DNA of 64,000 bases from Salinivirgaceae bacterium (GTDB taxonomy: Bacteria > Bacteroidota > Bacteroidia > Bacteroidales > SZUA-534). Of the stretch, positions 13,702 to 60,654 are shown piece after piece (within the stretch, counting starts at the first letter, position 1; each line of letters starts with the position of its first letter). Below the pieces are notes generated by a model. It had not been told where the DNA came from, ran no database searches, and saw only the letters and a program-made list of their open reading frames with translations. The DNA is taken from NCBI GenBank assembly GCA_024405635.1, contig JAKSOL010000007.1:32001-96000 (forward strand), in the 5' to 3' direction. The position numbers and the translations under genes are program-made.

Positions 13702-13749
13702 ATAGCCATTCCCCCAAAAAAAAACGAGAAACGAAAAACGAATAAATAA

Positions 13750-15360
<1,611 letters not shown>

Positions 15361-43417: not shown

Positions 43418-43435
43418 TTAGGTTTTGTTTTTATA

Positions 43436-43467
43436 TAAAAAGCGAGCAGAAATGTTCGCTTTTTTTG
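43436..43467 (+). terminator. Intrinsic terminator after alaS
   Basis: AAAAAGCGAGCA-GAAA-TGTTCGCTTTTTTT. Confidence 0.7.
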
Positions 43468-43694
43468 TTTTAGTAGGGTTCTCTTTAGCAAAAAAGCCGC
43501 CTCGCAATTGAGACGGCTTTTAGCAACTTTACAAAAACCTATTTATGAAAAAAACTTATGAAGCAGATTGTATTATTTCTTCATTTGAACAAGACAAAGA
43601 TACGGCGGTAAAAAACAGCAAAGAGTTAAGGTGTGGTTAAAAACTGTTAAGATTTGGTTAAAACGCGTTAACGGCCATTTAACTTTAACTACTT

Positions 43695-45296: not shown

Positions 45297-45307
45297 TTAG
45301 TTGCAAT

Positions 45308-46009
45308 ATGACAAAAAAACATATCCTTTTAGTTGAAGATGATTTGAACTTTGGTTCAGTAATGAAATCGTTTCTTGAAATGAACGATTTATATGTCGAT
45401 TGGGTTGATGATGGCCAAAACGCTATTGATACGTTTAAAAAAGGTTTCTATGATCTTTGCATACTTGATGTAATGTTGCCACATGTTGATGGTTTTACCA
45501 TTGGTACGCAGATTAAGCAAACGAAACCAGCTATGCCTATCATTTATCTTACGGCTAAAAACATGAAAGAGGATATTATTAAAGGTTTTAAGATTGGTGC
45601 TGACGATTATATTACTAAACCATTTGACTCTGAGGTTCTTATATATAAAATAAAAGCCATTTTAAAACGTAATCCGTTTTCGCCAGCCGAGGCCGAACGT
45701 AACGATACCACTGTGAATATTGGTAGGTTTGTGTTTAACTTTCGCGATCGCTCGCTTACATTTGAAGATGGCACACAAAGCAAATTGTCGCCCAAAGAGG
45801 CTGATTTGCTCTTCTTTTTGCACCAAAATGTAAATAATGTTCTTGATCGCAATTACACGCTTGAAAAAATATGGGGCGAAACTGGATATTTTACAGCTCG
45901 CAGTATGGATGTTTTTATTACTCGTTTGCGTAAGTTGCTAAAAGCCGACGAGAATATTGAAATATCAAACGTACACGGTAGTGGCTACATTCTGAAAGTT
46001 AAGGAGTAG
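45308..46009 (+). CDS. OmpR-family response regulator (RprY-like)
   Basis: LLVEDD, LDVMLP, GADDYITKPF, RSMDVFITRLRK. Confidence 0.92.
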   Translation: MTKKHILLVEDDLNFGSVMKSFLEMNDLYVDWVDDGQNAIDTFKKGFYDLCILDVMLPHVDGFTIGTQIKQTKPAMPIIYLTAKNMKEDIIKGFKIGADDYITKPFDSEVLIYKIKAILKRNPFSPAEAERNDTTVNIGRFVFNFRDRSLTFEDGTQSKLSPKEADLLFFLHQNVNNVLDRNYTLEKIWGETGYFTARSMDVFITRLRKLLKADENIEISNVHGSGYILKVKE

Positions 46010-46044
46010 CGTCATTTGCTTATTTATTGCAACCAGTTGAAAAC

Positions 46045-46078
46045 AAAAAGGGAATTCACAATGTGAACTCCCTTTTTT
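46045..46078. terminator. Bidirectional terminator
   Basis: AAAAGGGAATTCAC...GTGAACTCCCTTTT between convergent genes. Confidence 0.65.
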
Positions 46079-46096
46079 ATTGATAGTTTATTTTGC

Positions 46097-46777
46097 TTAT
46101 TCAGCAACGTTCAAACTTGCTGCTTTTTCAGGCATATCAAGTGTTGTGTAAATGTTTTGAAGACCTTTAACAACGTTTTTGTTTGTTGGGTCGTACTCGT
46201 ATGCTTTTTCAAACAAAGGCAAAGCTTCTTGGAATTTAGCATCAGCTTTAGCATATTCTGCTTTAAATTTATCAGGGTCGCTAGTGTTCATGCCACTTTC
46301 GTTAGCTGCTTTTTTAATGCTATTTGCTTCGTTGTACAATGGCATAGCTTTCTTTTGATAGCAACTACCAATAAGTTTTTTCATTGAAGCATCGTCAGGG
46401 AATTTGCCCAAACCTGCATTAAGGGTTTCAATTGCACCATCAACATCTTTGGTGTCCATTTGAATTTTGCCAAGTTGTTGGTACGATTTGTCAACCTTAT
46501 AATCGGCCTCAATCGATTTGCGGAACAAAGCTATAGCTTCGTCGTTCATTTTTGCTTTAGCAGCGCAGTAAGCCGCGTTGTAGTTAATGTTTTTGTCAAG
46601 TTCTTTGCCATTTTTTTCGTTATCGGCAAGTACTTGAGTGTAAAGTTCGTATGCTTTTTTGTAGTCTTTGTTGCGATAAGCTTCGTTGCCGCTGTTTGTT
46701 GCTTCAACTACATCAAAATCTTGCGCTTGCACTGTCATTGCGAAGGCCAAAAGCGCCAAGGTGAATAAATTTTTCAT
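46097..46777 (-). CDS. Secreted tetratricopeptide-repeat protein
   Basis: Signal peptide plus repeated TPR-like helices. Confidence 0.8.
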   Translation of the reverse strand: MKNLFTLALLAFAMTVQAQDFDVVEATNSGNEAYRNKDYKKAYELYTQVLADNEKNGKELDKNINYNAAYCAAKAKMNDEAIALFRKSIEADYKVDKSYQQLGKIQMDTKDVDGAIETLNAGLGKFPDDASMKKLIGSCYQKKAMPLYNEANSIKKAANESGMNTSDPDKFKAEYAKADAKFQEALPLFEKAYEYDPTNKNVVKGLQNIYTTLDMPEKAASLNVAE

Positions 46778-46805
46778 AATACTAATGGTTTTAAAGGTTT
46801 ATGTT

Positions 46806-47672
46806 TTATCCAAATACAATAGTCTTGTTGTTGTATACCAATATGCGGCGTTGAATGTGATAGCGAATGGCTCGCGATAGCACAATTTTTTCAAGGTCTC
46901 GACCTTTCAACACTAGCGAGTCAATTGTGTCGCGGTGTGTAATGCGAGTAACATCTTGTTCAATTATTGGACCTTCGTCAAGGTCGGTGGTTACGTAATG
47001 CGAAGTTGCACCAATAATTTTTACACCGCGTTTAAATGCTGCATGGTATGGTTTTGCGCCAGTGAATGCTGGCAAAAACGAGTGGTGTATATTGATGATT
47101 TTGTTTGGGTAGTGGTTTATAAAATCTTCTGACACTACTTGCATGTAACGAGCTAAAACAACAAATGATATGTCGTTGTCTTCCAATAATTTAAGCTCTT
47201 TTGCTTCTTGTTCTGCTTTATTTTCTTTAGTGATAGGAAAACAATAGTAAGGTATGCCAAATTGCTCAACAACTTTACGCATGTCTTCGTGATTGCTTAT
47301 AACCAATGGAATTTCAACTTCCCATTCTTTTGATTGGTATCGAGCCAAAATATCGAACAAGCAGTGGTCCATTTTTGATACAAACAACGCCATGCGAGGT
47401 TTGTCTTCCGATAGGTATATTTTAAACTCCATATCGTACGATGATGCGATAAGAGTTTGGAAATAGTCTTGAATCTTGTTTTTAGGAATAATAAATTCGC
47501 TTAAATCCCACTGAATGCGCATAAAAAACTGCCCATCTTCGTGGTCAACGTGCTGGTCAAGCTGAAGTATGTTTCCGTGGTTATTTTGAATAAACTCTGT
47601 AACCTTGGCTACAATTCCGCGTTGGTCGCGGCAGTGCATCAATATGGTTGCAGTGCTAACAGTAGTGTTCAT
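46806..47672 (-). CDS. purU: Formyltetrahydrofolate deformylase
   Basis: ACT domain, VLARYMQV, INIHHSFLPAF, DEGPIIEQD. Confidence 0.95.
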   Translation of the reverse strand: MNTTVSTATILMHCRDQRGIVAKVTEFIQNNHGNILQLDQHVDHEDGQFFMRIQWDLSEFIIPKNKIQDYFQTLIASSYDMEFKIYLSEDKPRMALFVSKMDHCLFDILARYQSKEWEVEIPLVISNHEDMRKVVEQFGIPYYCFPITKENKAEQEAKELKLLEDNDISFVVLARYMQVVSEDFINHYPNKIINIHHSFLPAFTGAKPYHAAFKRGVKIIGATSHYVTTDLDEGPIIEQDVTRITHRDTIDSLVLKGRDLEKIVLSRAIRYHIQRRILVYNNKTIVFG

Positions 47673-47796
47673 TGTATATACTTTTTTTGAAAAACAGTGC
47701 CAAATGTATAAAAAACCTTACTTGCACAAAAATAATACGCGGGACTTTTTAGATAGCTGAGGATGCTGAGTCAAATAACAAGAACGAAAGTGTTAC

Positions 47797-47831
47797 GTAT
47801 TATATAATGCTCAATCTAAGACAAGTAAAAC
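47797..47831. repeat. Repeat 1 (trailer, degenerate)
   Basis: GTATTATATAATGCTCAATCTAAGACAAGTAAAAC, 4 mismatches to consensus. Confidence 0.85.
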
Positions 47832-47875
47832 CATATCTACTCTTATCAACGGAAATGGACTAAAATGATGTGGAA

Positions 47876-48121
47876 TGTCTACTTTTGTAAAACTAAAACG
47901 CAGAAAAACAACGCCGATGTCTACTTCGGTAAATTATTAATTCAATAAAAAATTTTCTGTGTCTACTTTTTTGAGCTGGTACAAATTTTTTGGTCCAATG
48001 TTTTCATTACCGTCATTTTGATATCAATTTTCGAAAAAAGTTACTGTCATTTTGAGTAGATTTTCCAATATTTTTACCGTCATTTTGAAACTAAATCATA
48101 ATATTTGTACCGTCATTTTGA
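47876..48121 (+). repeat. Periodic short direct repeats upstream of the ATPase gene
   Basis: TGTCTACT at 47876/47918/47960 (42-bp period); TAC(C/T)GTCATTTTGA at 48008/48042/48075/48108 (33-34-bp period). Confidence 0.75.
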
Positions 48122-48139
48122 GCTCAATACTTATTTATC

Positions 48140-49486
48140 ATGGCCGAAATATATCAAAGAGAGGCATTGCAAAGCCTCAGGGAATGGAAGGAAAAGGCTG
48201 AACGCAAACCACTTATATTAAGAGGTCCGCGTCAGGTTGGGAAAACTACACTCGTGGATATTTTCTCAAAGGATTTTGAATCGTACGTTTACCTAAACCT
48301 TGAAATCGAGGAAAACGCAAAACTATTCGATACGAGCAAAAACATAAACGAGCTAATAACCTCGATATTTTTCATTGGCGGGCAAAAGATCAACAAGACA
48401 AGCAGCCTACTTTTCATCGACGAGATACAGAACTCGGCACAGGCTGTTATGATGCTGAGATATTTCTACGAGCAGGCTCCATGGCTTTATGTAATATCAG
48501 CAGGCTCACTATTGGAAAACCTTGAAAAAAGGAATATCTCATTCCCTGTGGGCAGAGTGGAATATATGGCTTTGCGTCCATTCTCGTTCAAGGAATATGC
48601 GTGGGCAAATCTAGGCGAGGATGTCTACAACGCCATCAACTCCGTATCCATACCAGAGGCTTATCACAGCAAGCTGATAAAGGAATTCAACACATACACA
48701 TTGATAGGCGGCATGCCAGAAGTGGTATCCAACTTCATAAAATACAAAGATATTCTGAAACTGAACGAGATATACGACACCCTGCTGACCGCGTATCGTG
48801 ATGACATAGAGAAATACGCTCCAAGAGAGAGCATAACCAAGGCAATGCGTTACATAATGGAACACGGTTTCCCATACGCGTCGCAGGAAATAGTATTGGG
48901 AGGCTTTGCAGGATCGGCTTACAAGTCAAGGGAAATCGGAGAGGCATTCTCGCTGCTATCAAAATCGATGCTAACAGAACTTGTGTATCCATCCACGTCA
49001 ACCGAGATACCGGCTCCTCCAGATATGAAGCGCAGACCCAAACTAATGTGGCTCGATACAGGAATAGTAAACTACGCCTCTGGCCTTAGGAAAGAGATAC
49101 TTGGCGCCAATGATATTCTCGACGTTTACAAAGGTAAGATTGCGGAACACATTGTAGGCCAGGAAATAATATCGACCGACAGCAGATGCTCTTTCCGAAG
49201 AAGCTACTGGGTAAGAAACAAACAAGGCTCTGACGCAGAAATGGATTTCACCTTACAGAAAGACAACAAGATGATCCCAATAGAAGTAAAAGCAGGAACC
49301 AACGCACACTTAAAATCGCTTCACATCTATATGGAAGAATCAGATCAGAATGTAGCCATCAGAATTTGGTCGAACCCGATGCAAATAGATGACATAAAAA
49401 CTCCGAAAGGCAAAACTTTCAAACTGATTAACCTGCCTTTCTACTATGTGAGCAAGATAAACGAGATTTTGGAAAAGGAGATATAA
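48140..49486 (+). CDS. AAA+ ATPase with DUF4143-type C-terminal domain (complete gene inside spacer 1)
   Basis: LRGPRQVGKTT Walker A, LFIDEIQ Walker B, GGMPEVV, EMDF...IPIEVKAG; AGA/ATA-rich codons unlike host genes. Confidence 0.9.
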   Translation: MAEIYQREALQSLREWKEKAERKPLILRGPRQVGKTTLVDIFSKDFESYVYLNLEIEENAKLFDTSKNINELITSIFFIGGQKINKTSSLLFIDEIQNSAQAVMMLRYFYEQAPWLYVISAGSLLENLEKRNISFPVGRVEYMALRPFSFKEYAWANLGEDVYNAINSVSIPEAYHSKLIKEFNTYTLIGGMPEVVSNFIKYKDILKLNEIYDTLLTAYRDDIEKYAPRESITKAMRYIMEHGFPYASQEIVLGGFAGSAYKSREIGEAFSLLSKSMLTELVYPSTSTEIPAPPDMKRRPKLMWLDTGIVNYASGLRKEILGANDILDVYKGKIAEHIVGQEIISTDSRCSFRRSYWVRNKQGSDAEMDFTLQKDNKMIPIEVKAGTNAHLKSLHIYMEESDQNVAIRIWSNPMQIDDIKTPKGKTFKLINLPFYYVSKINEILEKEI

Positions 49487-49494
49487 GAAAAAAA

Positions 49495-49547
49495 TCGGAG
49501 TTTTAGCGGAATCTATCTAAAAAGGGCACATTCCGCTAAAACTCCGA
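49495..49547. repeat. 18-bp perfect inverted repeat (terminator/REP-like)
   Basis: TCGGAGTTTTAGCGGAAT-17 nt-ATTCCGCTAAAACTCCGA just after the ATPase stop. Confidence 0.7.
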
Positions 49548-49705
49548 AAGGCAAATTTTTAATTATTTATCTGATATTGTGAAAATTAGGCTATGTTCTC
49601 AGCAAAATGAGGTAGGGCGTTTTTAGGGATTTTAGGGGAAGTTCGAAAAGGTGAATAACCTGCCTTTCTGGTATACGAGCAAGATTTATGTATCGTGATA
49701 CATAA

Positions 49706-49740
49706 GTTTTACATAATGCTCAATCTAAGACAAGTAAAAC
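49706..49740. repeat. Repeat 2 (variant)
   Basis: GTTTTACATAATGCTCAATCTAAGACAAGTAAAAC, 2 mismatches, both shared with repeat 1. Confidence 0.9.
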
Positions 49741-49974
49741 ATAAGCCATACCCAAATCGCCTTCGTCGATTATTATATTTTTCAATTGTTCGCCTGTAAT
49801 ACGACGTGTTTGCAAAGTTTCCCAACCAAACGGCAGTGTGCCGTCGTTGTTGGCTTGAATGTAGTTCACAGCCTTAACATTAAGATCAGTTCTTGTTTCT
49901 GCTTCGATACAGAAGTAAACATTTTCGTCGCCTTTTATACGAAAAAAATGTCGTTGAATGTCTATTAGTTTCAT
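49741..49974 (-). pseudogene. Hypothetical gene, 3'-truncated by repeat 2 (spacer 2)
   Basis: ORF MKLIDIQRHFF... runs into the repeat and only stops inside it (VLLVLD*). Confidence 0.6.
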
Positions 49975-50004
49975 AATTCTTGTTTTTATGTATTGTTTAG
50001 TTAG

Positions 50005-50193
50005 TTATTTGTTTATTTTTGCATCGAGTTCAGCGTCTTTATCGCTAAACAATGAATTGGCTTCCAACAGCGAGAGCAATTGTAGCTCTCCCATCGCGGA
50101 TAGCCAATTTTTAATTTTACGACTATCGTAATACCACACATTGTTAGTAGCAATAGATTGCTCTATTTTAGTACATATTTTATTGTCATTTTG
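50005..50193 (-). pseudogene. 3' end of a hypothetical gene, 5'-truncated by repeat 3 (spacer 2)
   Basis: 63 open codons QNDNKICTKIEQ...DAKINK* beginning at the repeat edge with no start codon there. Confidence 0.55.
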
Positions 50194-50194
50194 A

Positions 50195-50229
50195 GTTTTA
50201 CATAATGCTCAAACTCAGACAAGTAAAAC
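50195..50229. repeat. Repeat 3
   Basis: Exact consensus. Confidence 0.95.
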
Positions 50230-50285
50230 TAATACAGAACAAGTACAACGAACTTGTTAACCGCATGCAGGCGGTGGTCTTTTAG
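50230..50285 (+). pseudogene. 3' end of a HicB-like antitoxin gene (spacer 3)
   Basis: Encodes IQNKYNELVNRMQAVVF*, identical to the C-terminus of 52667-53062. Confidence 0.75.
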
Positions 50286-50438
50286 GACTTAATCAACATT
50301 AAGGCGGTGCTGCATTCACCGCTTTTTTTTTGCTTTTAAAAAAAATTTTGTAATTTTGTAGTGCTTTATAAGCATCCCTGGACTCGCTCCGAGATTGGGT
50401 TTGTGTCGAAAGGCTCATACCACCAAAGCCTAACAGTG

Positions 50439-50681
50439 TTAGGCTTTTTTTGTTAATGACGAGTTTGTTTTGATGACATTATAGCCGTCGTCAAAGTAAT
50501 AATATACCTTTATTTTATCTATATGCCACAAATTGTACAATGCGTTGATAGCCTTATCTGTATCAATACCTCTTTCTAAGCATTGCAACACGATTTCAGC
50601 CTTTTGATGATTTATGGCATAACGTGCTTTTTTTTCAATATTACCAGTTCCTTTGGTTTGTTTCAAATCTGCTGGAATGCC
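50439..50681 (-). pseudogene. C-terminal fragment of a CdiA-C-like PD-(D/E)XK nuclease (spacer 3)
   Basis: GIPADLKQTKGTGNIEKKARYA...; homologous to 51989-52488; cut by repeat 4. Confidence 0.65.
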
Positions 50682-50716
50682 GTTTTACATAATGCTCAAA
50701 CTCAGACAAGTAAAAC
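50682..50716. repeat. Repeat 4
   Basis: Exact consensus. Confidence 0.95.
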
Positions 50717-51128
50717 TTACAATACCCTTTACAGTGATGTTTTTTATGGTTGCACCGCTCGAATACCCGAATAATCCGATACTGCGTGTTTCAGCCGAAC
50801 TGTCAGCAACATTCATATTCGAAATGGTGTGGTTGTTGCCGTCAAAAACACCTTTAAACGGATTCCTTGCCTCGCCAATGCTAAACCACGGTTGATTGTT
50901 CAGGTCGATGTCCGCAATAAGTTTATAGTGCAAAGTATCAAATCCCTGTGTTCCGGCACTAACAACATACGACATAAACGCCAGTTCGTTAGCGGTTCCA
51001 ATAATATATGGCGACTCTTTGCTGCCATCACCTTCTGTGAATTCTTCCATGGCGCCTTCCCATGCGTCTGCCGCATGAGTGTTAATCACCGCCAACACCA
51101 TGACGATGCTAATGAATGTAATCTTTCT
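50717..51128 (-). pseudogene. N-terminal fragment of a secreted GLUG-type surface protein (whole of spacer 4)
   Basis: Frame is open across the entire spacer: signal-peptide-like RKITFISIVMVLAVINTHA, GDGSKESPYII, YKLIADIDL, FKGVFDGNNHTISN, GLFG. Confidence 0.7.
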
Positions 51129-51163
51129 GTTTTACATAATGCTCAAACTCAGACAAGTAAAAC
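51129..51163. repeat. Repeat 5
   Basis: Exact consensus. Confidence 0.95.
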
Positions 51164-51358
51164 TTTTAGATGTTTCAAATCGGAGGGCGAGAATTTGCCC
51201 ACCTCCGCCTTGTAAGTAACACGTGTTATTTTGCCGTTCTTTACGTAAAAAGAAACTTTTACTACATTGCCGTTCTTTACAGCGTGAACGTGAATGGGTT
51301 TGTGTTCGCCAGAATAGAACAAAATTTTTATTCCAAGATATTCGTATATTACAGGCAT
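51164..51358 (-). pseudogene. DUF4160-like (HicA-fold, putative toxin) gene, 3'-truncated by repeat 5
   Basis: MPVIYEYLGIKILFYSGEHKPIHVHA motif; the stop codon is supplied by the repeat. Confidence 0.7.
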
Positions 51359-51376
51359 AAATTAAAACTCCTTATA

Positions 51377-51697
51377 ATGATTATTTGTAATTCCCACGAA
51401 AGGCTTACTACTACTAAACGTTGCACAACAATGTGCATTAACAAGATTATTGCCGATTGTAAAGCATTTAAGATTGGCAAAACTGGCGACCCTCAAAGCA
51501 GGGCGGCCAATTATGGCGATTTTGACAAAATGTATCTTTTGGTTCAAAGCAAAAATTCGCTTCTGATTGATAGGCTTGAAGGCTACTATACCCAAAAGTA
51601 TTACGGCCATAAAAAAAATATGAATATAAACAGAGGTTCTGCGGCTGTTATGGCTTCTTCTCATAGGACTTACTATTTATATATTGTTGTCAAATAG
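51377..51697 (+). CDS. Hypothetical protein, possibly GIY-YIG-like (spacer 5)
   Basis: FKIGKTGDPQSR motif and a downstream LE resemble GIY-YIG nuclease cores; start uncertain (51377 or 51431). Confidence 0.45.
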   Translation: MIICNSHERLTTTKRCTTMCINKIIADCKAFKIGKTGDPQSRAANYGDFDKMYLLVQSKNSLLIDRLEGYYTQKYYGHKKNMNINRGSAAVMASSHRTYYLYIVVK

Positions 51698-51946
51698 GCC
51701 ATTATACATACTTAACGGATTTATGTCTGCTCCGTTGTCCCAAGTAACAATGCCGTCAACTACGCCAACTTTGGCAAATAATTCTTTGTCGATTAAGGCC
51801 TTAAAAACTGGGAAATAGCCTTTTTGTATGTTGTTTTTTAGATAGCATATTTTTTCTGTGCCATCATAAAATTGCACTTGTAAGGCATATTCGTCTATGT
51901 TATATACTTTAACCGACTTCACATCAAAAAAGGCTTTTTCCTTCAT
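51677..51946 (-). CDS. DUF2442-like putative antitoxin (complete, spacer 5)
   Basis: LQVQFYDG, VFKALID..LF, IVTWDNGADINP. Confidence 0.75.
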   Translation of the reverse strand: MKEKAFFDVKSVKVYNIDEYALQVQFYDGTEKICYLKNNIQKGYFPVFKALIDKELFAKVGVVDGIVTWDNGADINPLSMYNGLFDNNI

Positions 51947-51953
51947 TGTTTTG

Positions 51954-51988
51954 GTTTTACATAATGCTCAAACTCAGACAAGTAAAAC
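51954..51988. repeat. Repeat 6
   Basis: Exact consensus. Confidence 0.95.
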
Positions 51989-52488
51989 ACGATATTAGCA
52001 ATATTAGTGAGTTGGCTGAAAATCGTGCAGAGTTCATGGCGTATGCGACAAATCCTGATTATACATCTACGTTCGACACTGGCAGCGGTGGTTTCTTGGC
52101 TAAACATAACTCACGAATACCTAACGACTCAACGTCAAAGAACGATATAGAGAAGTATGAGAAAGAAATAAGAATGTGCGATGTATTCGTAAAGGCTGGG
52201 CACAAGATTGTTTACAAAGAAGATGTCCAAGGGGAGTATGATGTGTTATTTGACGGAATTCCAGCAGATTTGAAACAAACCAAAGGAACTGGTAATATCG
52301 AGAAATACGCAAGGTACGCCGTGAAGAGTCAGAAAGCAAAAATGGTGCTTTTTTGTTTGGAAAAGGACATAAATAGAAACAAAGCGGAGGAGGCACTAAG
52401 AGCGTTGTATATAGTAGATAAAATCAAAGTGTTGTATTATTATGAGGACAATACGAATGTTGTTTTGTCTAATAAATCACTTCTATAA
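51989..52488 (+). pseudogene. C-terminal CdiA-C-like PD-(D/E)XK nuclease domain (MuF/polymorphic-toxin type), 5'-truncated, in frame with the ATG inside repeat 6
   Basis: E...YDVLFDGIPADLK...KSQKA pattern; the ORF-track N-terminus MLKLRQVK is repeat-encoded. Confidence 0.6.
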
Positions 52489-52666
52489 AATAGAAAAGCC
52501 CAACAATAACATTGTCAGGCTTTTAGTGGTACGAGTCTTTCGACACGTACCCTATCTCGGGGCTAACCCAGGGACTGCCATTTAAGACACTACAAAATTA
52601 CAAAATTTTTTATAAAAGCAAAAGAAAAAGCGGTGAATGCAGCACCGCCTTAATGTTGATTAAGTC

Positions 52667-53062
52667 CTAAAAGACCACCGCCTGCATGCGGTTTACAAGT
52701 TCGTTGTACTTGTTCTGTATTATTGCTTTCTGCTTGTCCGATACTGGTACAAGTTTACGTTTGTATTTGCGCATCATTGCTGCGTTTAGACCTATTTCCT
52801 TGGCGAATGCTGTGGCGTTGATAAATGGAAATTGCTCAAAGAACCCAGATATGTCGTACACGTATTCTACTGCGATATTGTCACTATACCAATCTGGGTA
52901 TTTCCCTGTTTGTTCCATGTGGTATTTGGCTTGCTCAACCATAACTTCCTCGAAGCATGTTTTAGCCTCTTGTTCTGTCATGCCACTGCCGTACACGCCT
53001 TGCGCATCGTTGGTGTAAATAGCAAAACCTCCGTCTGCGCCCCTCTCAATAACTGCTTTCAT
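52667..53062 (-). CDS. hicB: HicB-like antitoxin with C-terminal HTH (complete, spacer 6)
   Basis: MKAVIERGADGGFAIY...GSGMTEQEAK; YVYDISGFF..FPFINATAFAKEIGLN. Confidence 0.75.
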   Translation of the reverse strand: MKAVIERGADGGFAIYTNDAQGVYGSGMTEQEAKTCFEEVMVEQAKYHMEQTGKYPDWYSDNIAVEYVYDISGFFEQFPFINATAFAKEIGLNAAMMRKYKRKLVPVSDKQKAIIQNKYNELVNRMQAVVF

Positions 53063-53131
53063 GTTCGTTTAGTTTTATCATTGTTCTTTAAAAAAAAAGT
53101 TGAACTGCCCCCCACTAAGGGGAGCAGCGTT

Positions 53132-53147
53132 CTACTTTAGTCCTGCG
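53132..53147 (-). pseudogene. Last codons of a probable HicA toxin gene, cut by repeat 7
   Basis: Reads GCA GGA CTA AAG TAG (AGLK*), a typical HicA C-terminus, just upstream of hicB. Confidence 0.5.
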
Positions 53148-53182
53148 GTTTTACATAATGCTCAAACTCAGACAAGTAAAAC
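53148..53182. repeat. Repeat 7
   Basis: Exact consensus. Confidence 0.95.
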
Positions 53183-54047
53183 GGCTAACGCTTTTTCAAA
53201 GGCAATTACCGAGCGCGAAGTCCGCAAAACCGACAAGTATGCTGCCGAGATTAACGCCATTAAAGGCAAGTTGCTCGACTTTATCAACAAAGGCGCTGAA
53301 ATTAAAGATTCGCACTTTGACAAATACAACGATATTGCTAACAAACAAGTGTTGCACCCATTTGTAAAAATTGTGCGTGCTTACATTAAGATTAACGGCA
53401 AAGAAAACGTTAAAAAGCAAGCCAACACCATTTGCACCAACATTGCAAATCTTTGCAAAGTATTGCCAGCCGATTTTGAATTTATGGCACAACTTAAAGC
53501 AATTGAAAAAAGCTTAAACAACTACATTGAGGGCAAAACAGCAACGCCTAAAATGTTGCAAACCGAATTAAGCGGTTTAGGTCGCATTGCCGATAACGAC
53601 GAAGATGCAAGCACTGCATATTTAGTTACTCTATCAAGAAAAGAAGTGTACGAAGATGGTTACAGAGATAGTGAAACATTGCTAAAATCTAACGACTACA
53701 ATGCCGCTATTGCATTTTTTAATGACAAGAAAAAGCAATTGCAAAATATGGCAGAAGATGATGTTTGCGATTATGATTTAACTATGTGGGTAGGCGACTA
53801 TGAGGATATTGTAGAAGAAGAATTTGCAGATTTTATAGGAGAACCAACCGATGGTTATGCGGTTTTAATTAAAGACAGCCATGGTTACTTAATAGAAAAT
53901 GGCGATGGAAAAACCGAAAGGGATTTTGTGCTCGAAGATTGTAAGGTAAAATTAGTTAAGAAAGACGAATTAACAGACGAAATACAAATTAGTTTTGGAT
54001 TTCCAAAACGATGGGTAAAATTAGGTTTAATACCTTCAAGATTATAA
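53183..54047 (+). pseudogene. 3' part of a large hypothetical phage/MGE gene, 5'-truncated by repeat 7
   Basis: Frame is open from the repeat edge; the ORF-track N-terminus merely reads through the repeat (VLHNAQTQTSK). Confidence 0.6.
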
Positions 54048-54062
54048 GATATAACTAACAAC

Positions 54063-54094
54063 AAAAAAGCCGCGCTTAAAGGCGTGGCTTTTTT
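54063..54094. terminator. Bidirectional terminator inside spacer 7
   Basis: AAAAAAGCCGCGC-TTAAAG-GCGTGGCTTTTTT. Confidence 0.7.
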
Positions 54095-54225
54095 ACTTTG
54101 ACAAGGCAAAGTACCTTGATGGCGCAGGGGCGTTAATCAATATTTCAGCCTAACGACAACGTCCGAAACGTATTCCCTGATTGTCCGATGCAAGTATAAG
54201 GAAAAAATATATACACAAACAAGAT

Positions 54226-54702
54226 ATGCGAGAAAAAATAATAGAATATATCAAAAAGGCGTGGAACGGCGAAAAATGCAGCAGATTGCTGGATATAACC
54301 AGTGCAATTGACATACAAGCACTGGAAGTTGCAAATAGTATAATTGATAAATTAAACGAAATACAAGATAGAGAAAAATACGACCACATTAAAAAAGTTA
54401 AAATATATGCAGTCGATTTTGATCACACAAAAGAAAGACATTTTGGTGCAAATGAAACAAGGACAGACCAAATACCTTTAACATTTGATGATATACCTTT
54501 GTTAGTCGATACTTTATTGTCGCCGCAATTGGTAAGATTAGGAACATTACGCCAAGATACAGGAGCAGGAATACACTTTATTAGCCAGTTGGATAATGGT
54601 AAAATGATTTGCGTACTAATAAAAGTTAAGCCGCAAAAAGAAACTTATAAAAATAGAACAATATATAAAAAGAAATTAAAAGATGGAAGCAAGAATAGTT
54701 GA
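54226..54702 (+). CDS. PBECR-like (phage Barnase-EndoU-ColicinE5/D-RelE) putative nuclease
   Basis: HTKERHFG..E....QIPLTFDDIPLLVDTLLSP pattern and C-terminal TIYKKK. Confidence 0.5.
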   Translation: MREKIIEYIKKAWNGEKCSRLLDITSAIDIQALEVANSIIDKLNEIQDREKYDHIKKVKIYAVDFDHTKERHFGANETRTDQIPLTFDDIPLLVDTLLSPQLVRLGTLRQDTGAGIHFISQLDNGKMICVLIKVKPQKETYKNRTIYKKKLKDGSKNS

Positions 54703-55532
54703 TTTTTATATGGTAGAAAACACCAATAAGGACAAACGCCTACGCTTAATGAAAATGAAAGCGCTTGCACTGGCTGAACCGCTTGACGGTTTAGCCACAA
54801 CCAAGTGTGCTAACAATCAACCTGCCGATATTGTTAATCGATATTTGGATTTACTCGATAAGCCAACACGCGCCGCCGCAATGGGCGTTTTGTCGTCGGT
54901 TGAGCGCTTTATTGAGCAAGCCGATAATAATTACCCTTATATGGCTGAATTTGCGGCTATGGCTGTAAGTTTGAGCGATTATATTAACGAAGAAACGGCA
55001 ACACCACAAATTGCAGCCATCGACCTTAATAACATTCATAAAATATCAGGCGTTAATGTTGATAATAGCGAATTAAAAGGCATTGTAAGTAGTAAAACGC
55101 TGCTTGCTCATCAGTTTGAGCCGCTGAACTTTGGTGGTAAGTGGAAACTGTTATTTGGTCGCCCAACCGCGCCTTTTAAGGTAATGGTACACGGAGCGCC
55201 CGGAAATGGCAAATCAACTTTTGCTATACAATTCGCTAAATACCTTGCCAGCAGCCACAAGTTGCGTGTATTGTATATTGCTAATGAAGAGAGTTTTACA
55301 TACACCTTTCAGGAGAAACTTATGCGCCTGAACGCAATAGACGACAACCTGAAAATAGCCGATTCGCTACCTGATAACTTTGACGATTATGATGTAGCGT
55401 TTTTCGATTCAGTAAACACAATGAAACTCGATATTGACGATTTACGACGAATATTCAAACAAAACGACAAAACTTCGTTTGTGTTGATTTTTCAAAACAA
55501 CAAGAAAGGTCAATTTAGGGGTTCGCTTGAGT
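54683..55532 (+). pseudogene. Phage/MGE P-loop ATPase (RecA/Sms-like), 3'-truncated by repeat 8
   Basis: VMVHGAPGNGKST, VLYIANEE, AFFDSV, KKGQFRGS; the stop codon lies inside the repeat. Confidence 0.7.
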
Positions 55533-55567
55533 GTTTTACATAATGCTCAAACTCAGACAAGTAAAAC
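55533..55567. repeat. Repeat 8 (leader-proximal)
   Basis: Exact consensus. Confidence 0.95.
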
Positions 55568-55617
55568 AGACTATTGGCTAATTTATTGAATAAGAGTATA
55601 CTATCATTGGTTTGCTG
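55568..55617 (-). promoter_or_regulatory. Putative 50-bp AT-rich CRISPR leader
   Basis: Non-coding gap between the cas2 stop and the first repeat; contains ATTCAATAAATTA (55591-55579), one mismatch from the IHF consensus. Confidence 0.5.
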
Positions 55618-55938
55618 TTAAAAAAAATCAATCAAATCGGGCTTTTTTAGCAAAATCTCGTCATTTTTTCGTTTCTGTTTTCGTCCAAAATAATGGTAAG
55701 AAGCTTCGTTGTGTTTGTCATCTACCACTACTACACTTATTTGGCATTTGCCGCAAATAGCTTCCATTATTCGCTTTTTATGAACTAATGCGTTGGCCAT
55801 AGAGTAACAATACCGTATATATAGATTGGAGTATAACTTATTGAATCCGTCCTTCTCTAGTTGACGCGAAAAATTCTTTTTACATTCCTTGCCTGTTGAT
55901 GTGCGGTTGGAAATGTTCATAAAAACGTAAATCCACAT
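55618..55938 (-). CDS. cas2: CRISPR-associated Cas2 (type II-C-like, divergent)
   Basis: MWIYVF..., F..QLEKDGF..LYSNLYIRYC...NALVHKKRI; 3 bp downstream of cas1; Asn at the usual catalytic Asp position. Confidence 0.8.
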   Translation of the reverse strand: MWIYVFMNISNRTSTGKECKKNFSRQLEKDGFNKLYSNLYIRYCYSMANALVHKKRIMEAICGKCQISVVVVDDKHNEASYHYFGRKQKRKNDEILLKKPDLIDFF

Positions 55939-55941
55939 AAC

Positions 55942-56799
55942 TTAAAACAATGAAGGGTAATATATTACACGTCGCTCACCTAAGTAAATCTGCGATAGCG
56001 AATAAGTTGTTTGTGACACATCGTCGGGTTTTATTGACTCGTAGAATAGCTCCAAAATGGCTTTTTTGAAGTTGTGGTCAATGCATCTTTGGCCGATGGT
56101 GTATAGTTCAAGCACTTTTTCGTCAACAAATGGTCGATATGGTTCCATAACATCGTCGCTCAACGGAAAGGAGTTGTATCGGTTTTTATGAAAAACACCA
56201 ATCATTGGCAATAAACCTGAATTCATTAGCGCACGCGATACTACCGACCGCAAAATGGCATATCCGTAGTTTAGCATATCGTTGGGACAATTGCCGTAAC
56301 GGTCGCGTATAAAATCTTTGCCTAGCAAAAGTTTCCAATATGTTGCGGCTGCCAAAGCCTCGCGATTTGTTGTGTCGCCACTTTTAACATTCTTATGGTA
56401 CTTGCTCAACACATCTTCTCCCTTGCCCAATTTTTGTAGCAATAGCGACTGGTTGTGTATCTTATGTTCTATTATCTGTTTCCAGATTTGTTTTCTAACG
56501 GGTTCTGTTGTCGCTAACTGCGCGTTAAAGGTCATTGTTTGCCGTACGTTTGACTCTAAGTCTAAAGTCATGCTTACGGGCATGTGGCGCTCGTCGCAAA
56601 AAACTATGCTTATGTTGTTTTGAGACAACTTGTTAAGCAGTGGCACAGTGATGCGTACCGAATGGTTATCGACTAAAATACCCGACACGTCCTCTAACGA
56701 ACGCATGATTGGGTCTTTATCTTCTTGACAAATTAAAAGCTGCCCATCTTTCAACGATAGATCGGCTTTGTTTTCAAATACAAGTGTTTGTTTTGGCAT
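55942..56799 (-). CDS. cas1: CRISPR-associated Cas1 (type II-like)
   Basis: SGDTTNREALAA..YW, NDMLNYGYAILRS, GVFHKNRYNSFPLSDDVMEPYRPFVD; catalytic E/H/E appear retained. Confidence 0.93.
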   Translation of the reverse strand: MPKQTLVFENKADLSLKDGQLLICQEDKDPIMRSLEDVSGILVDNHSVRITVPLLNKLSQNNISIVFCDERHMPVSMTLDLESNVRQTMTFNAQLATTEPVRKQIWKQIIEHKIHNQSLLLQKLGKGEDVLSKYHKNVKSGDTTNREALAAATYWKLLLGKDFIRDRYGNCPNDMLNYGYAILRSVVSRALMNSGLLPMIGVFHKNRYNSFPLSDDVMEPYRPFVDEKVLELYTIGQRCIDHNFKKAILELFYESIKPDDVSQTTYSLSQIYLGERRVIYYPSLF

Positions 56800-56921
56800 A
56801 ATTGTTTTCTAAATGGTTTCTACTAAAGAATGAAAATAACAATGGGTGTGTAGGTTTGGTTGTACACAACCATATTTTTATTAACCTTGCAGTCTAAAAT
56901 TTTGGTGGAGATATATCCACT

Positions 56922-56952
56922 AGAGTGCTTGGTAACCTCTTAAAAAACAAGG
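56922..56952 (+). ncRNA. preQ1 class I-like riboswitch
   Basis: AGAG-TGCTTGGTAAC-CTCT-TAAAAAACAAG; loop CTTG can pair with tail CAAG (pseudoknot); directly upstream of yhhQ-queC-queF. Confidence 0.7.
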
Positions 56953-56954
56953 AT

Positions 56955-57644
56955 ATGGTAAAAAAACAACCAACAGTGAGTGTGCTGTTTATGCTTTTCA
57001 GTGTACTCTTTTGTGTTTGCTTAATAGCTGCAAACATTTTCGAAACAAAGCAAGTGGCATTTTTCAGTCACAGCCAAACTGCAGGTGTAATTGTGTTTCC
57101 AATTTCGTACATCATAAACGATTGTGTGTGCGAGGTTTGGGGGTACAAAAAAACACGTTTACTCATTTGGCTTGGATTCTTAATGAATTTCTTTTTTGTA
57201 GCAGTTGGTGCTTTGTGCGATGCGCTTCCTCCTGCCGAGTATTGGGACAATCAAGCTGGTTTTCATGCAATTTTTGGACTTGCACCACGCATTGCAGCCG
57301 CGTCGTTTGTGGCTTTTGTTTGTGGCTCGTTTATCAATGCTTATGTAATGTCGCGAATGAAACTTCGCGATGGCGAGAATCGTTTTTCGCTTCGAGCTAT
57401 CTTAAGTACAATTTTTGGCGAAAGTGTTGACTCTATTATATTTTTCCCATTGGCTTTGGGCGGCATTGTACCTTGGTCCGAAATGCCATGGCTAATGCTT
57501 TTTCAAGTTGGGTTAAAAACTGTGTACGAAATAATTGCTTTGCCAATCACTATTCGTGTAGTTCGTGCAGTTAAGCGAGCTGAAGGAACCGATGTTTACG
57601 ATGAAGGTATTTCGTATAGCATTTGGAAATTGTTCGATTTGTAG
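56955..57644 (+). CDS. yhhQ: Queuosine precursor transporter (VUT family)
   Basis: FPISYIINDCVCEVWG, RIAAAS, STIFGESVDS; ATG at 56955. Confidence 0.9.
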   Translation: MVKKQPTVSVLFMLFSVLFCVCLIAANIFETKQVAFFSHSQTAGVIVFPISYIINDCVCEVWGYKKTRLLIWLGFLMNFFFVAVGALCDALPPAEYWDNQAGFHAIFGLAPRIAAASFVAFVCGSFINAYVMSRMKLRDGENRFSLRAILSTIFGESVDSIIFFPLALGGIVPWSEMPWLMLFQVGLKTVYEIIALPITIRVVRAVKRAEGTDVYDEGISYSIWKLFDL

Positions 57645-57678
57645 GTGCGAGTAAATTTTTAACCTAAAACCAAAAAAC

Positions 57679-58332
57679 ATGGATAGTGCATTAGTGGTTT
57701 TTAGTGGTGGACAAGATTCTACCACGTGCTTGTTTTGGGCAAAACAAAAGTTTAATAGGGTTGTGGCCTTGTCGTTTACCTACGGACAAAAGCATGCAAA
57801 AGAAGTAGAGCAAGCAGAAATTATTGCTCGCGAGGCTGGTATAGAATGGCAATGTATTGATGCTAGTTTTATTTCAAATTTAGCATCTAACTCGTTAACC
57901 AACAGTACGATGCAAATGGATACTGAAAAACCCGCAGGTTCGCCTCCAAATACGTTTGTGCCTGGGCGGAATTTGTTCTTTTTGAGCATTGCAGCGGTAG
58001 TTGCTCGTGAACATGGCATAAAAAATATTGTTACAGGGGTTTCGCAAACCGATTTCAGTGGTTATCCCGATTGCCGCGACGAGTTTATTAAAAGTCTTAA
58101 TCAAACCATAAATCTAGCAATGGATTACCAGTTTACTATACACACACCGCTAATGTGGATTGATAAATGTCAAACTTGGGAAATGGCAGATAAGTTGGGC
58201 GTTTTTAATATTATTCGTACGCAAACAATAACTTGCTACAATGGAGTTATTGGCGATGGTTGTGGCAATTGTCCTGCTTGTAAATTACGTAAAATAGGAT
58301 TGGATAAATATTTAAAAATCAGAAAAATATGA
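57679..58332 (+). CDS. queC: 7-cyano-7-deazaguanine synthase
   Basis: [30 protein letters not shown]. Confidence 0.96.
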
Positions 58333-58784
58333 AAAGAGAAGATGAAGGCTTGCAACAACTTGGACGCAAAACCGAATACCGACAAGATTACGCTCCAGAG
58401 GTGCTTGAAACATTTATGAACAAACACCCCGAAAACGATTATTGGGTGCGGTTTAATTGTCCAGAATTCACATCGTTATGTCCAATTACCGGTCAGCCCG
58501 ATTTTGCTGAAATTGTGATAAAGTACATACCTGACCAAAAGATGGTTGAGAGCAAAAGTTTGAAACTATATCTATTTAGTTTCCGTAATCATGGCGATTT
58601 TCATGAGGATTGCGTTAATATAATAATGAAAGACCTTATTAAGTTAATGGATCCAAAATACATTGAAGTTATAGGTCTTTTTACGCCGCGCGGAGGTATA
58701 AGTATTTATCCTTATGTAAATTACGGACGTCCGGGTACAAAGTATGCAGAACTGGCAAGTAAGCGTTTTGCTGAACACGAATAG
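58329..58784 (+). CDS. queF: preQ1 synthase (NADPH-dependent nitrile reductase)
   Basis: [32 protein letters not shown]. Confidence 0.96.
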
Positions 58785-58932
58785 CAATAAATATGCATAA
58801 GCAACGGTTGCTAACTTGAAAACTTGTTGAAAAATTAAGAGAAAGTACGTAGTCGTTTGTTCTTGTTCAATGGGTAAAATACATTAGTTTCGCAACACGA
58901 ATAATAGTGCGCAAGCATTATAAAACAAAAAT

Positions 58933-60654
58933 ATGATGAGTGACCTTTTCGAAGTCCTTAAATGGCTTTTTGTTTTTGTAGGTGCCTTGGGTGTGTTCCT
59001 TTATGGAATGAAACTAATGAGCGAGGCAGTACAAAAACTTGCAGGCGATGGAATGCGTGGTATTTTGTCGCGAATGACCTCAAAACCATTCAATGGTATT
59101 CTAACTGGATTGGTAGTTACAACAGCAACCCAATCGTCGTCGGCAACAACGGTGATGGTGGTTAGTTTTGTTAACGCTGGCCTTATTACGTTGGCGGGTG
59201 CAATAGGCATCATTATGGGAGCCAATATAGGTTCAACGGTAACATCGTGGATTATCTCTATTTTTGGTCTTAAATTTTCACTTTCAGCAATAACACTTCC
59301 AATGGTAGCCATTTCGCTACCATTTATTTTTTCGTCAGATGCTAAACGTAAGTCGTTGGGCGAGTTCCTGATTGGCTTTTCGTTGTTGTTTCTTGGTCTC
59401 GATTTTATGACCGACAGTATTCCAGATGTTAGCCAATTTCCTGAAGTACTGAAAATTATTGCAAGTTGGTCAAGTCACGGATATTTGTCAATTATATTAT
59501 TTGCGCTGATTGGTGCAGTGTTTACAATGATAGCGCAAGCATCGTCGGCCATTATGGCGGTTACTTTGTTTATGTGTAACAAAGGTTGGATTGGCTTTGA
59601 TATGGCTGTTGCTTTGGTTATGGGACAAAACATTGGTACAACTATCACAGCAAATTTGGCTGCAATGGTTGCAAATGTTACAGCTAAGAAAGCCGCTCGC
59701 GCACACTTGATTTTTAATTTGGTGGGTGTCATTCTTTGTTTGGTGGTTTTTTATCCATTTATGCATCTACTTGACAATATATCAATGAGCGTGCAAGGCA
59801 TGTCGCCATACAGTGAGCCAAGTGCAATTCCGTTGACATTGTCGCTTTTCCATACAATATTCAATGTGGCAAATACTGTGATTTTGGTTGGGTTTATTCC
59901 TCAACTTATCAAGTTGGTAAATGTTTTGGTAAAATCAAATAAAGAGGAGGACGAAGAGTTCCGCTTGAAATTTATTTCTGGCGGTATGATGAGTACAGCC
60001 GAATTGTCGATAGTTGAGACGTTTAAAGAGATTGGTTTTTTTGCTGAACGGGTTCAGAAAATGTTTGGTTTTGACCAAGAGTTGCTTTATATCGACAACG
60101 AAAAAGATCACAACAAGTTGTTGGGTAGAATTGAAAAGTACGAGAAGATTTGTGACAACCTAGAGTTGGAGATTGGCAGATACATAAACAAAATATCAGA
60201 GGGTAAGTTAAGTGCCGCATCAAAGCAGAAAACCATCTACATTTATCGAGAGGTGTCGGAGATTGAAAGCATTGGCGATAGTTGCTACAATCTTTCGCGC
60301 CACATCAATACAGCATTTTCTGCAAAAGCTCAGTTTACCGATAATCAGCATGCAAACATAAAGCAAATGTTTAATCTTGTTGATTTTGCATTAAACAACA
60401 TGGTTACTTTGGTAAAAGACCGAACAAATGCAGAAGCTATAAATAAAGCCTATGCGCTTGAAAATGAGATAAATGATTTGCGCGCTAAGCTCAAGGCTCA
60501 AAATATATCCGATGTGGGCAATCAAGTTTATGATTATCAGCTTGGAGTGTGGTATTTGGATATTATCACTGAGTGCGAAAAAATAGGCGATTACATAATA
60601 AATGTGATTGAGGCTCGGACTGAAACTAGTAGGAAAACAGTTTCTCAAATATAA
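58933..60654 (+). CDS. Na/Pi cotransporter family protein with PhoU domains
   Basis: QSSSATT, GANIGST, GQNIGTT, EKIGD. Confidence 0.9.
   Translation: MMSDLFEVLKWLFVFVGALGVFLYGMKLMSEAVQKLAGDGMRGILSRMTSKPFNGILTGLVVTTATQSSSATTVMVVSFVNAGLITLAGAIGIIMGANIGSTVTSWIISIFGLKFSLSAITLPMVAISLPFIFSSDAKRKSLGEFLIGFSLLFLGLDFMTDSIPDVSQFPEVLKIIASWSSHGYLSIILFALIGAVFTMIAQASSAIMAVTLFMCNKGWIGFDMAVALVMGQNIGTTITANLAAMVANVTAKKAARAHLIFNLVGVILCLVVFYPFMHLLDNISMSVQGMSPYSEPSAIPLTLSLFHTIFNVANTVILVGFIPQLIKLVNVLVKSNKEEDEEFRLKFISGGMMSTAELSIVETFKEIGFFAERVQKMFGFDQELLYIDNEKDHNKLLGRIEKYEKICDNLELEIGRYINKISEGKLSAASKQKTIYIYREVSEIESIGDSCYNLSRHINTAFSAKAQFTDNQHANIKQMFNLVDFALNNMVTLVKDRTNAEAINKAYALENEINDLRAKLKAQNISDVGNQVYDYQLGVWYLDIITECEKIGDYIINVIEARTETSRKTVSQI

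Follow-up and report, generated by a model that had tools for sequence, protein, structure and literature searches.

The type II-C CRISPR systems of Bacteroidales are arranged as cas9-cas1-cas2 next to arrays in which repeats of 36 or 47 nt alternate with spacers of 29 to 31 nt. A 64,000-nt stretch of a gut Bacteroidales genome (Salinivirgaceae bacterium, GenBank assembly GCA_024405635.1, contig JAKSOL010000007.1, positions 32,001 to 96,000), hereafter the window, carries a cas1-cas2 pair beside an array whose repeats separate 0.4- to 2.4-kb pieces of phage-like, mobile-element, and host DNA. Like the type II-C systems, this locus has a Cas1 of the type II family (TIGR03639) that nests among Cas9-linked Bacteroidales Cas1 proteins, a cas2 gene following cas1, a leader, a degenerate terminal repeat, identical newer repeats, and repeat ends of the GTTTTA...AAAAC type. 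Unlike them, it lacks a local anti-repeat and lies in a genome without Cas9, the inserts found here span 176 to 2350 bp, and Cas1 measures about 285 amino acids (aa) rather than about 294 to 297, with gaps of 8 and 2 residues near the C terminus in comparison with loci L042 and L043. Below, bare coordinates are window positions, G000 is the source genome with its contigs given as C numbers, other G numbers are compared genomes, L numbers are compared loci, WIN is the window Cas1 row, and X1, X2, and X8 are sequencing runs.

In the type II-A system of Streptococcus pyogenes, according to one report, a Cas9-Csn2-Cas1-Cas2 supercomplex trims DNA to about 30 bp and Cas1-Cas2 alone integrates unprocessed substrates (PMC8034620); a second describes free sampling of host DNA as well when targets are not destroyed (PMC4335292). 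Both properties fit the long inserts and the one self-derived segment found here, but the laboratory work used substrates of tens of base pairs with Csn2 present, whereas the inserts of this study are natural, fixed in a clade, and of kilobase size, with neither Csn2 nor Cas9. Integrons share with the array a fixed chromosomal site and an ordered series of unrelated DNA units, some of them whole genes, between a short recurring sequence. They differ in their IntI-type tyrosine recombinase, which was not found in the window scans, in cassette-borne attC sites where the array has identical 35-mers apparently duplicated on insertion, and in promoterless whole open reading frames (ORFs) of one orientation where the array has random fragments, often truncated, in both. 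Casposons, the Cas1-solo transposons, also employ Cas1 as a DNA integrase outside RNA-guided immunity; in contrast to them, the locus has no (family B) polymerase gene and no mobile unit bounded by terminal inverted repeats, possesses Cas2, and yields an array growing at its leader instead of a transposing element. It is a CRISPR adaptation module that fits the definition of neither a type II system, nor an integron, nor a casposon. In the literature covered, from which most subscription journals were missing, neither spacers of kilobase length nor a type II adaptation clade devoid of Cas9 was found described.

Structure of the repeat array

The eight direct repeats of 35 nt (R1 to R8; Table 1) were recovered by a repeat search of the window. 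Six of them, R3 to R8, are identical, R2 has two mismatches, and R1 has four and begins with GTATTAT. A scan of the whole of G000 with the repeat pattern and up to three mismatches gave eight matches, seven in the array and one on contig C8, and a backwards control pattern gave none. On the minus strand, cas1 is followed by cas2, the leader, and the repeats from R8 down to R1. Constant-length short direct repeats, a degenerate terminal repeat, and a leader adjoining cas2 are present as in CRISPR arrays; where standard finders expect short, near-uniform spacers of tens of nucleotides, the array has segments of 412 to 2350 bp, and the guanine-plus-cytosine (GC) content of segments ranges from 0.31 to 0.53 inside one array.

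A first-pass annotation of this DNA had listed the same eight repeats, a distance of 50 bp between the array and cas1-cas2, and the same seven segment lengths, all of which were reproduced, the 50 bp being the gap from the cas2 stop to the first repeat. Its GTTTTAC-type repeat ends apply to the consensus repeats and not to R1. It had also placed most segment ends within ORFs lying in both orientations, and reading frames do run into the edges of segments B, C, D, E, F, and G, with the genes of F and G truncated.

The window Cas1 scored 284.5 bits against the NCBIfam model TIGR03639 (cas1_NMENI, type II; cut-off, 120), its nearest solved structures are type II-A Cas1 proteins (5xvn at 1.8e-36, 4zkj, and 6qxf), and it is the only Cas1 of G000. 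Cas2, which matched its family model weakly (Table 1), is 38% identical (E value, 3e-29) to the neighbor of cas1 at L040, itself positive for Pfam CRISPR_Cas2.

A Cas1 clade with long arrays

Cas1 relatives were gathered from three sources: genomes of the order (401, of which 140 had a match), species-representative genomes, and metagenome contigs (80 loci). Duplicates (L011, L068, and L012 to L016), identical sequences, and partial sequences shorter than 250 aa, except L046, were dropped before the tree was calculated. WIN, L046, L040, L070, L071, L069, L047, L041, L048, and L072 formed one clade with a Shimodaira-Hasegawa-like approximate likelihood ratio test (SH-aLRT) support of 99. All six clade loci with a visible array have 35-nt repeats spaced 211 to 2385 bp apart, each locus with a repeat of its own. 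The spacings were 607, 268, and 633 bp at L046 (Cas1 94% identical to that of the window), 444, 267, and 377 bp at L040 of genome G181 (55%; array upstream of cas1), 284, 294, 402, and 1248 bp at L069 (54%), 665 to 2250 bp among the ten repeats of L070 (54%), and 593 and 2288 bp at L048 (49%), which belongs to an Alloprevotella metagenome-assembled genome (MAG); a second, decayed locus of G181, L058 on contig C7, has spacings of 211 and 620 bp. Besides the six long-array loci, the clade comprises three Cas9-less loci that lack the array flank, and L072. No long array was seen at L047, L071, L072, and L041, where on one side little or no sequence adjoins cas1 or cas2. The 30 segments of eight arrays measured 176 to 2350 bp (median, about 590 bp), none of them of normal spacer size, and the arrays were short, with 3 to 10 repeats.

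None of the ten clade loci has a Cas9-sized ORF upstream of cas1, the largest ORF being 702 aa. Among the 80 metagenome loci, 76 have a Cas1 below 49% identity; 62 of these carry arrays at 65- to 67-nt spacing and none a long array, and where at least 3.5 kb of upstream DNA was available, 49 of 52 include in it an ORF of 900 aa or more, the size of Cas9. The Cas9-linked relatives have 30-nt spacers. The long-insert architecture is restricted to one Cas1 clade without an adjacent Cas9. The possibility raised in the first-pass annotation that related loci would hold only spacers of about 30 bp did not materialize, since six independent loci have the same architecture, each with its own 35-nt repeats.

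A protein search returned at least 120 clusters of 52 to 95% identity, nearly all of 284 to 287 aa; without exception they come from metagenomes or MAGs, and their contigs are often very short. The window repeat pattern had no match in 32 other genomes of the source family, two of 13 genomes in family f3 carry the module, and G430 is the only clade member among 401 genomes of its family. G502, a candidate for a further member in the latter family, was rejected, as it has an ordinary cas9-cas1-cas2 locus with 65- to 66-nt spacing. In IMG/VR (18 loci), the clade Cas1 had a best match of 44% identity, and in PLSDB (13 records) one of 40%; the proteins matched are of the ordinary type II, and there is therefore no sign in either collection of a virus- or plasmid-borne module.

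At L041 (41-760; G034:C63), a Cas9-less clade cas1-cas2 pair lies 2.3 kb from an ordinary array of 47-nt repeats and 29- to 30-nt spacers. The interval contains a gene named as a sulfatase gene on the strength of its translation, and the contig ends 83 bp past cas2. The ordinary array probably belongs to a second, ordinary type II system of G034.

Array junctions in independently assembled contigs

An assembler might walk from normal 30-bp spacers into matching phage or host DNA and back, and a chimera of this kind would be in keeping with the short-read origin of all loci and with the second context of segment D in the same sample. In the probable source run X1, however, independently assembled contigs with depths of 23 to 29, similar to those of the flanks, led unbranched from one repeat into the next across the whole of segments B, E, and G. 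Single contigs covered 47956-50224 (from segment A through R2 and segment B into R3), 51136-51982 (R5, segment E, and R6), 53153-55561 (R7, all 2350 bp of segment G, and R8), and 55539-56951 (R8, leader, cas2, and cas1). Segment D was present in the reads as a 412-nt contig ending exactly at the repeat edges, and its loose ends matched the flanks of a donor copy on contig C14 of the same genome; its depth of 51 fits two genomic copies, and the exact copy on C14 was relied on instead. Run X2, from another study, reproduced three junction types: segment A to R2, R8 to cas1, and segment E inside a 1121-nt contig with the letters on both sides placed on repeat copies. Long spacing moreover tracks a single Cas1 clade, being present in 6 of the 6 arrays visible there and at 0 of the 76 metagenome loci below 49% identity. 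Because separately assembled contigs span repeat to repeat through whole segments, the junctions are physically real, and on these short-read data the assembly chimera, named by the first-pass annotation as a possible refutation, is essentially excluded and deserves hardly any credence.

In X2, depth was at most 0.85 over 52005-55273 (segments F and G), while coverage extended over segments A, D, and E, cas1-cas2, and both flanks of the array. That X2 represents a strain without the two newest segments was considered and not counted as evidence, as no contig joins across the gap. Contigs of the RNA run X8 on the segment A gene and on cas1 do not demonstrate transcription. Logan contigs are built on 31-letter words. 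Two joints with sides shorter than 30 letters (49740>54075 and 53550>54129) were disregarded and most likely come from a decayed element on contig C33.

Absence of Cas9, tracrRNA, and ordinary arrays

Cas1 and Cas2 are present as in a type II system, and a Cas9 gene and the anti-repeat of a trans-activating CRISPR RNA (tracrRNA) were not found. The Cas9 family TIGR01865 had no match in G000, which is 99.78% complete, and the same search was positive in the control genomes G266 and G288. It likewise found no Cas9 in G181 or G431; in G430, Cas9 is present on a contig other than that of the clade cas1. No ORF longer than 255 aa lies upstream of the window cas1, and no conventional CRISPR array was detected elsewhere in G000. 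Over 44000-60000 outside the array, no local alignment to the repeat or its complement reached a score of 15, and a search with Rfam over 46000-58000 gave nothing at the gathering score, with sub-threshold matches at chance level only. The missing Cas9 is probably key to the long inserts.

Origin of the inserted segments

Segment D matches G000:C14:45931-46342 at 412 of 412 bp (100% identity). The matching stretch belongs to the 5' part of a surface-protein gene with a Por_Secre_tail (secretion-system C-terminal sorting domain) that adjoins a MobA/VirD2 relaxase gene. The flanks of this donor carry no repeat and no microhomology to the repeat, which argues that the repeat was made during insertion. 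The donor was thus not repeat-flanked beforehand; it was the opposite finding, segments already bordered by these repeats in donor elements lacking cas1, that the first-pass annotation had named as adverse to its idea.

Other segments resemble phage or mobile-element DNA. The ATPase of segment G matches positions 13 to 159 of 310 in phrog_6891 and stops at 283 aa, in the repeat, its best relatives having 482 to 485 aa. The segment F ORF covers only positions 270 to 391 of 459 in phrog_23416, so that its N-terminal part is missing. Segment C corresponds in inverted orientation to positions 267 to 734 of segment F (75.9% identity over 469 nt; 93% in a 120-nt core), which suggests that the same region of two related donors was sampled. 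Segment B is 85% identical over 115 nt to G000:C33:64217-64331, a decayed element beside two tRNA-like stretches, and segment G is 93% identical over 42 nt to the adjacent piece of C33. No match to segment G was obtained by blastn in the INPHARED phage collection, and no relative of its truncated ATPase in a scan of IMG/VR.

Ordinary cellular genes were found in segments of other loci: thioesterase, DUF2809, TonB, AraC, and SDR genes at L070, a complete CPBP/Rce1-like gene with its terminator at L058 (6073-6657), and at L048 one segment consisting of a small gene with its own upstream region and another with the sole cstA of G430, which starts 12 nt past a repeat. cstA occurs in 85 of 201 family genomes at no more than 71% nucleotide identity, which is uninformative on the donor. 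An own-genome donor was identified for one of 18 segments tested, segment D; none was found in their own genomes for the segments of L040, L058, L046, and L048. Judged from these sequences, the contents appear to be mostly foreign and heterogeneous, taken in both orientations and cut regardless of genes.

The neat gene units of L058 and L048 would also be compatible with a cassette array built by a site-specific recombinase, in which the repeats are attC-like sites, segments are mobilized in circular form, and cas1-cas2 plays no part; a variant of this explanation is the integration of prophages or other elements into CRISPR repeats, as reported in a preprint on Streptococcus pyogenes (bioRxiv 10.1101/2020.10.09.333658). 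However, no integrase or recombinase was found in Pfam scans of all larger ORFs at 40808-60654 or among the scanned ORFs of L040, L058, and L070, the repeats are identical 35-mers and not variable structured sites, and the repeat differs between loci along with Cas1. Most segments are cut inside genes, in both orientations, and the segment D donor has no repeat on either side. Such an array is very improbable.

Three further features of the segments and their relatives were recorded. Segments C (50350-50440) and F (52490-52580) have in common a diverged GC-rich stretch between convergent genes, flanked by terminator-like hairpins, for which Rfam gave only sub-threshold matches (rli42, 22 bits) and which may represent a donor-element small RNA. 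G000:C33:63500-64700 (L052 7600-8790) is about 1 kb of gene-poor DNA beside two apparent tRNA genes and is probably what is left of an integrated, donor-related element. Four CCGTCATTTTGA-like 12-mers lie upstream of the AAA_14/DUF4143 ATPase gene of segment A (48010-48125), and a 12-mer similar to CCGTCATTTTGA stands at the extreme end of segment B (50183-50194), possibly an operator or promoter repeat.

Footprints of probable insertion at the leader end

The array is polarized: the six repeats on the leader side do not differ from one another, variant bases of the L046 repeat are found in R2 and R1, and R1 is degenerate. Degenerate terminal repeats were seen in five arrays (window, L040, L046, L048, and L058). 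Identical repeats on the leader side and older or degenerate ones at the distal end are predicted by repeat duplication at the leader. The cas DNA of L046 is 90% identical to that of the window and the two arrays have no segment in common, which indicates that arrays turn over.

On the strand ending 3' at the junction, T occupies position -4 in 39 of 60 ends (background, 0.29; P = 6e-9), position -3 in 32, and position -5 in 28. At -4, it was found in 21 of 30 ends on the leader side and 18 of 30 on the distal side, enriched in each of the eight arrays and fixed in none. This two-fold symmetric preference is expected from a symmetric integrase capturing two 3'-OH ends. The earlier statement that the 14 junctions of the window share no motif did not hold once the 30 segments were pooled, and is explained by its small sample.

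Proposed mechanism and the evidence against it

A Cas9-less type II Cas1-Cas2 integrase probably inserts untrimmed DNA fragments at the leader end. The module would descend from a type II (II-C-like) adaptation module that has lost Cas9, and Cas1-Cas2 would catalyze insertion at the leader-proximal repeat, duplicating the 35-bp repeat each time. The inserts would be untrimmed double-stranded fragments of about 0.2 to 2.4 kb instead of 30-bp spacers. They would be copies of whatever DNA is available, predominantly foreign (phage-like or mobile elements) with an occasional piece from the host itself; either orientation would be accepted, and the cuts could fall anywhere, in many cases within a gene. 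Their length would be unconstrained because the Cas9-dependent trimming step is gone; as Cas1-Cas2 alone integrates unprocessed DNA in the experiments described in PMC8034620, a type II integrase without Cas9 should by extension give long inserts. The proposal of the first-pass annotation, an adaptation module that adds over-long fragments at the leader with repeat duplication, drew support at the sequence level from every test that was run. Its DNA archive describes what is seen, its integron-like gene capture is one possibility among others, and the absence of Cas9 had been overlooked.

Several observations weigh against this mechanism. At L046 (locus positions 1-700), cas1 has lost one nucleotide from a run of T and has TAG in place of CAG at codon 94, and is either a recent pseudogene or marked by errors of a low-coverage MAG. 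Second, decayed copies of the module exist in G000 (on C8) and G181 (on C7). At G000:C8:646-812 (L007/L053), a solo repeat with one mismatch is followed by a diverged leader and cas2 3' end, 81.6% identical over 125 nt to the window; it adjoins apparent acetyltransferase genes (identified by eye), and the contig starts 645 bp away. At L058 (5548-6990), four variant repeats, the distal one degenerate, stand next to the same leader, and beyond it about 130 nt of the cas1 5' end are fused to the cas2 3' end, an internal deletion of the integrase genes. The broken cas1 and the decayed copies establish that the module does decay. The published untrimmed substrates were of tens of base pairs in a II-A system, not of kilobases or in II-C (PMC8034620). 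With one own-genome donor among 18 segments, the copying of ambient DNA rests on one exact case and partial homologies, and some segments hold complete ordinary genes (cstA in G430; AraC and SDR at L070), for which enclosure of host DNA by some rearrangement is possible. The tree came from a quick maximum-likelihood search with 93 Cas1 rows, every locus is known from short-read metagenome assemblies or MAGs, and no leader-end difference between strains could be demonstrated.

At L070, the repeat and a 101-nt leader are duplicated exactly (9846-9981 and, 3.8 kb downstream, 13618-13753), and the place of cas1 behind the second leader is taken by genes that by eye are IS66-like (13788-14530); this looks like tandem modules, one of them disrupted.

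Purifying selection on the integrase was assessed by the ratio of nonsynonymous to synonymous substitution rates (dN/dS), which between WIN and L046 is 0.072 for cas1 (216 codons; dS, 0.33) and 0.076 for cas2 (106 codons; dS, 0.45). Four clade members, 50 to 55% identical to the window Cas1, share 91 invariant columns, among them E147, H204, D215, D216, and E219, which we take to be the Cas1 active site and which are invariant in alignment A1. A dN/dS of about 0.07 together with the 91 columns points to an integrase kept by selection without Cas9. These values count against the explanation that the array is a functionless relic, formed in the same way by a Cas1-Cas2 that sometimes inserts untrimmed DNA after the loss of Cas9 and has no selected role: functionless genes would not retain so many columns, and the whole Cas9-less clade, of at least 120 clusters, reaches down to about 50% identity. 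A relic would account for the lesions in the L046 cas1, the decayed second loci, the IS66 genes behind the duplicated L070 leader, the lack in G000 of an effector, an anti-repeat (44000-60000), or another array, the shortness of the arrays (3 to 10 repeats), and the sparse distribution (2 of 13 genomes in f3; G430 alone among 401). Overall, it appears improbable.

Possible functions and significance

Where a Cas9-less integrase writes untrimmed DNA, several functions can be considered. Integron-like capture of foreign DNA at a safe site may be put forward, with considerable reserve. Cas9-independent defense that uses the stored homology, for example through long antisense RNA, is less likely and must be called doubtful. 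That nothing is selected beyond a slowly decaying module is unlikely, and to the same degree so is some other function. Taking the clade as a whole, it is quite conceivable, if short of probable, that a widespread group of Bacteroidales Cas1-Cas2 has left RNA-guided immunity and, acting alone and independently of homology, writes kilobase DNA into a single site of the chromosome (a "CRISPR integron"). Such a group would store invading or neighboring DNA for gene gain or for effector-free, homology-based defense, for instance by long antisense transcripts, with Cas1 selecting ends by the T-rich 3' motif.

If the mechanism is true, a natural, conserved Cas1-Cas2 lineage with inserts of 0.2 to 2.4 kb alters the view of spacer length as fixed by a ruler, reveals how a type II integrase behaves in cells without Cas9, and stands in evolution between adaptive immunity and platforms that capture genes, integrons for example. 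Because of their limits on spacer length, standard CRISPR finders would pass over these arrays, and the class may therefore be much undercounted, with at least 120 Cas1 clusters already visible. For DNA recorders and genome-insertion tools, an integrase able to place kilobase DNA at a defined 35-bp site without homology would be relevant, and the symmetric T-rich end signature offers a testable handle on substrate choice.

Feature coordinates and neighboring genes

Table 1 Features of the cas1-cas2 locus and its array, in order from cas1 to the terminal repeat
Feature	Positions	Strand	Description
cas1	55942..56799	-	285 aa, type II family; Pfam PF01867 (Cas_Cas1), 1e-30
cas2	55618..55938	-	106 aa; TIGR01573, E value 0.004, weak, below cut-off
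Leader	55568..55617	-	50 bp between the cas2 stop and the newest repeat, R8
Repeat R8	55533..55567	-	Leader-proximal, consensus
Segment G	53183..55532	.	2350 bp, phage-like; 5'-cut ORF, 173-aa ORF, 3'-cut ATPase
Repeat R7	53148..53182	-	Consensus
Segment F	51989..53147	.	1159 bp; 5'-cut ORF, intergenic stretch, complete minus-strand 131-aa ORF
Repeat R6	51954..51988	-	Consensus
Segment E	51164..51953	.	790 bp, small ORFs; phrog_37898 match
Repeat R5	51129..51163	-	Consensus
Segment D	50717..51128	.	412 bp, exact copy of host DNA (G000:C14)
Repeat R4	50682..50716	-	Consensus
Segment C	50230..50681	.	452 bp; inverted diverged homolog of part of segment F
Repeat R3	50195..50229	-	Consensus
Segment B	49741..50194	.	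454 bp; partial likeness to a decayed element on G000:C33
Repeat R2	49706..49740	-	Older variant, two mismatches, bases as in the L046 repeat
Segment A	47832..49705	.	1874 bp; complete AAA_14/DUF4143 ATPase gene and flanks (Pfam)
Repeat R1	47797..47831	-	Terminal, degenerate, four mismatches

The locus is flanked by ordinary genes, a formyltransferase gene on one side and, on the side of cas1 away from the array, Vut_1, QueC, and QueF genes. Just upstream of the window, G000:C34:22041-29700 contains six coding repeats of 70 to 82 nt, 1.3 to 1.8 kb apart, which look like a series of Rhs/YD-type toxin-tip cassettes.

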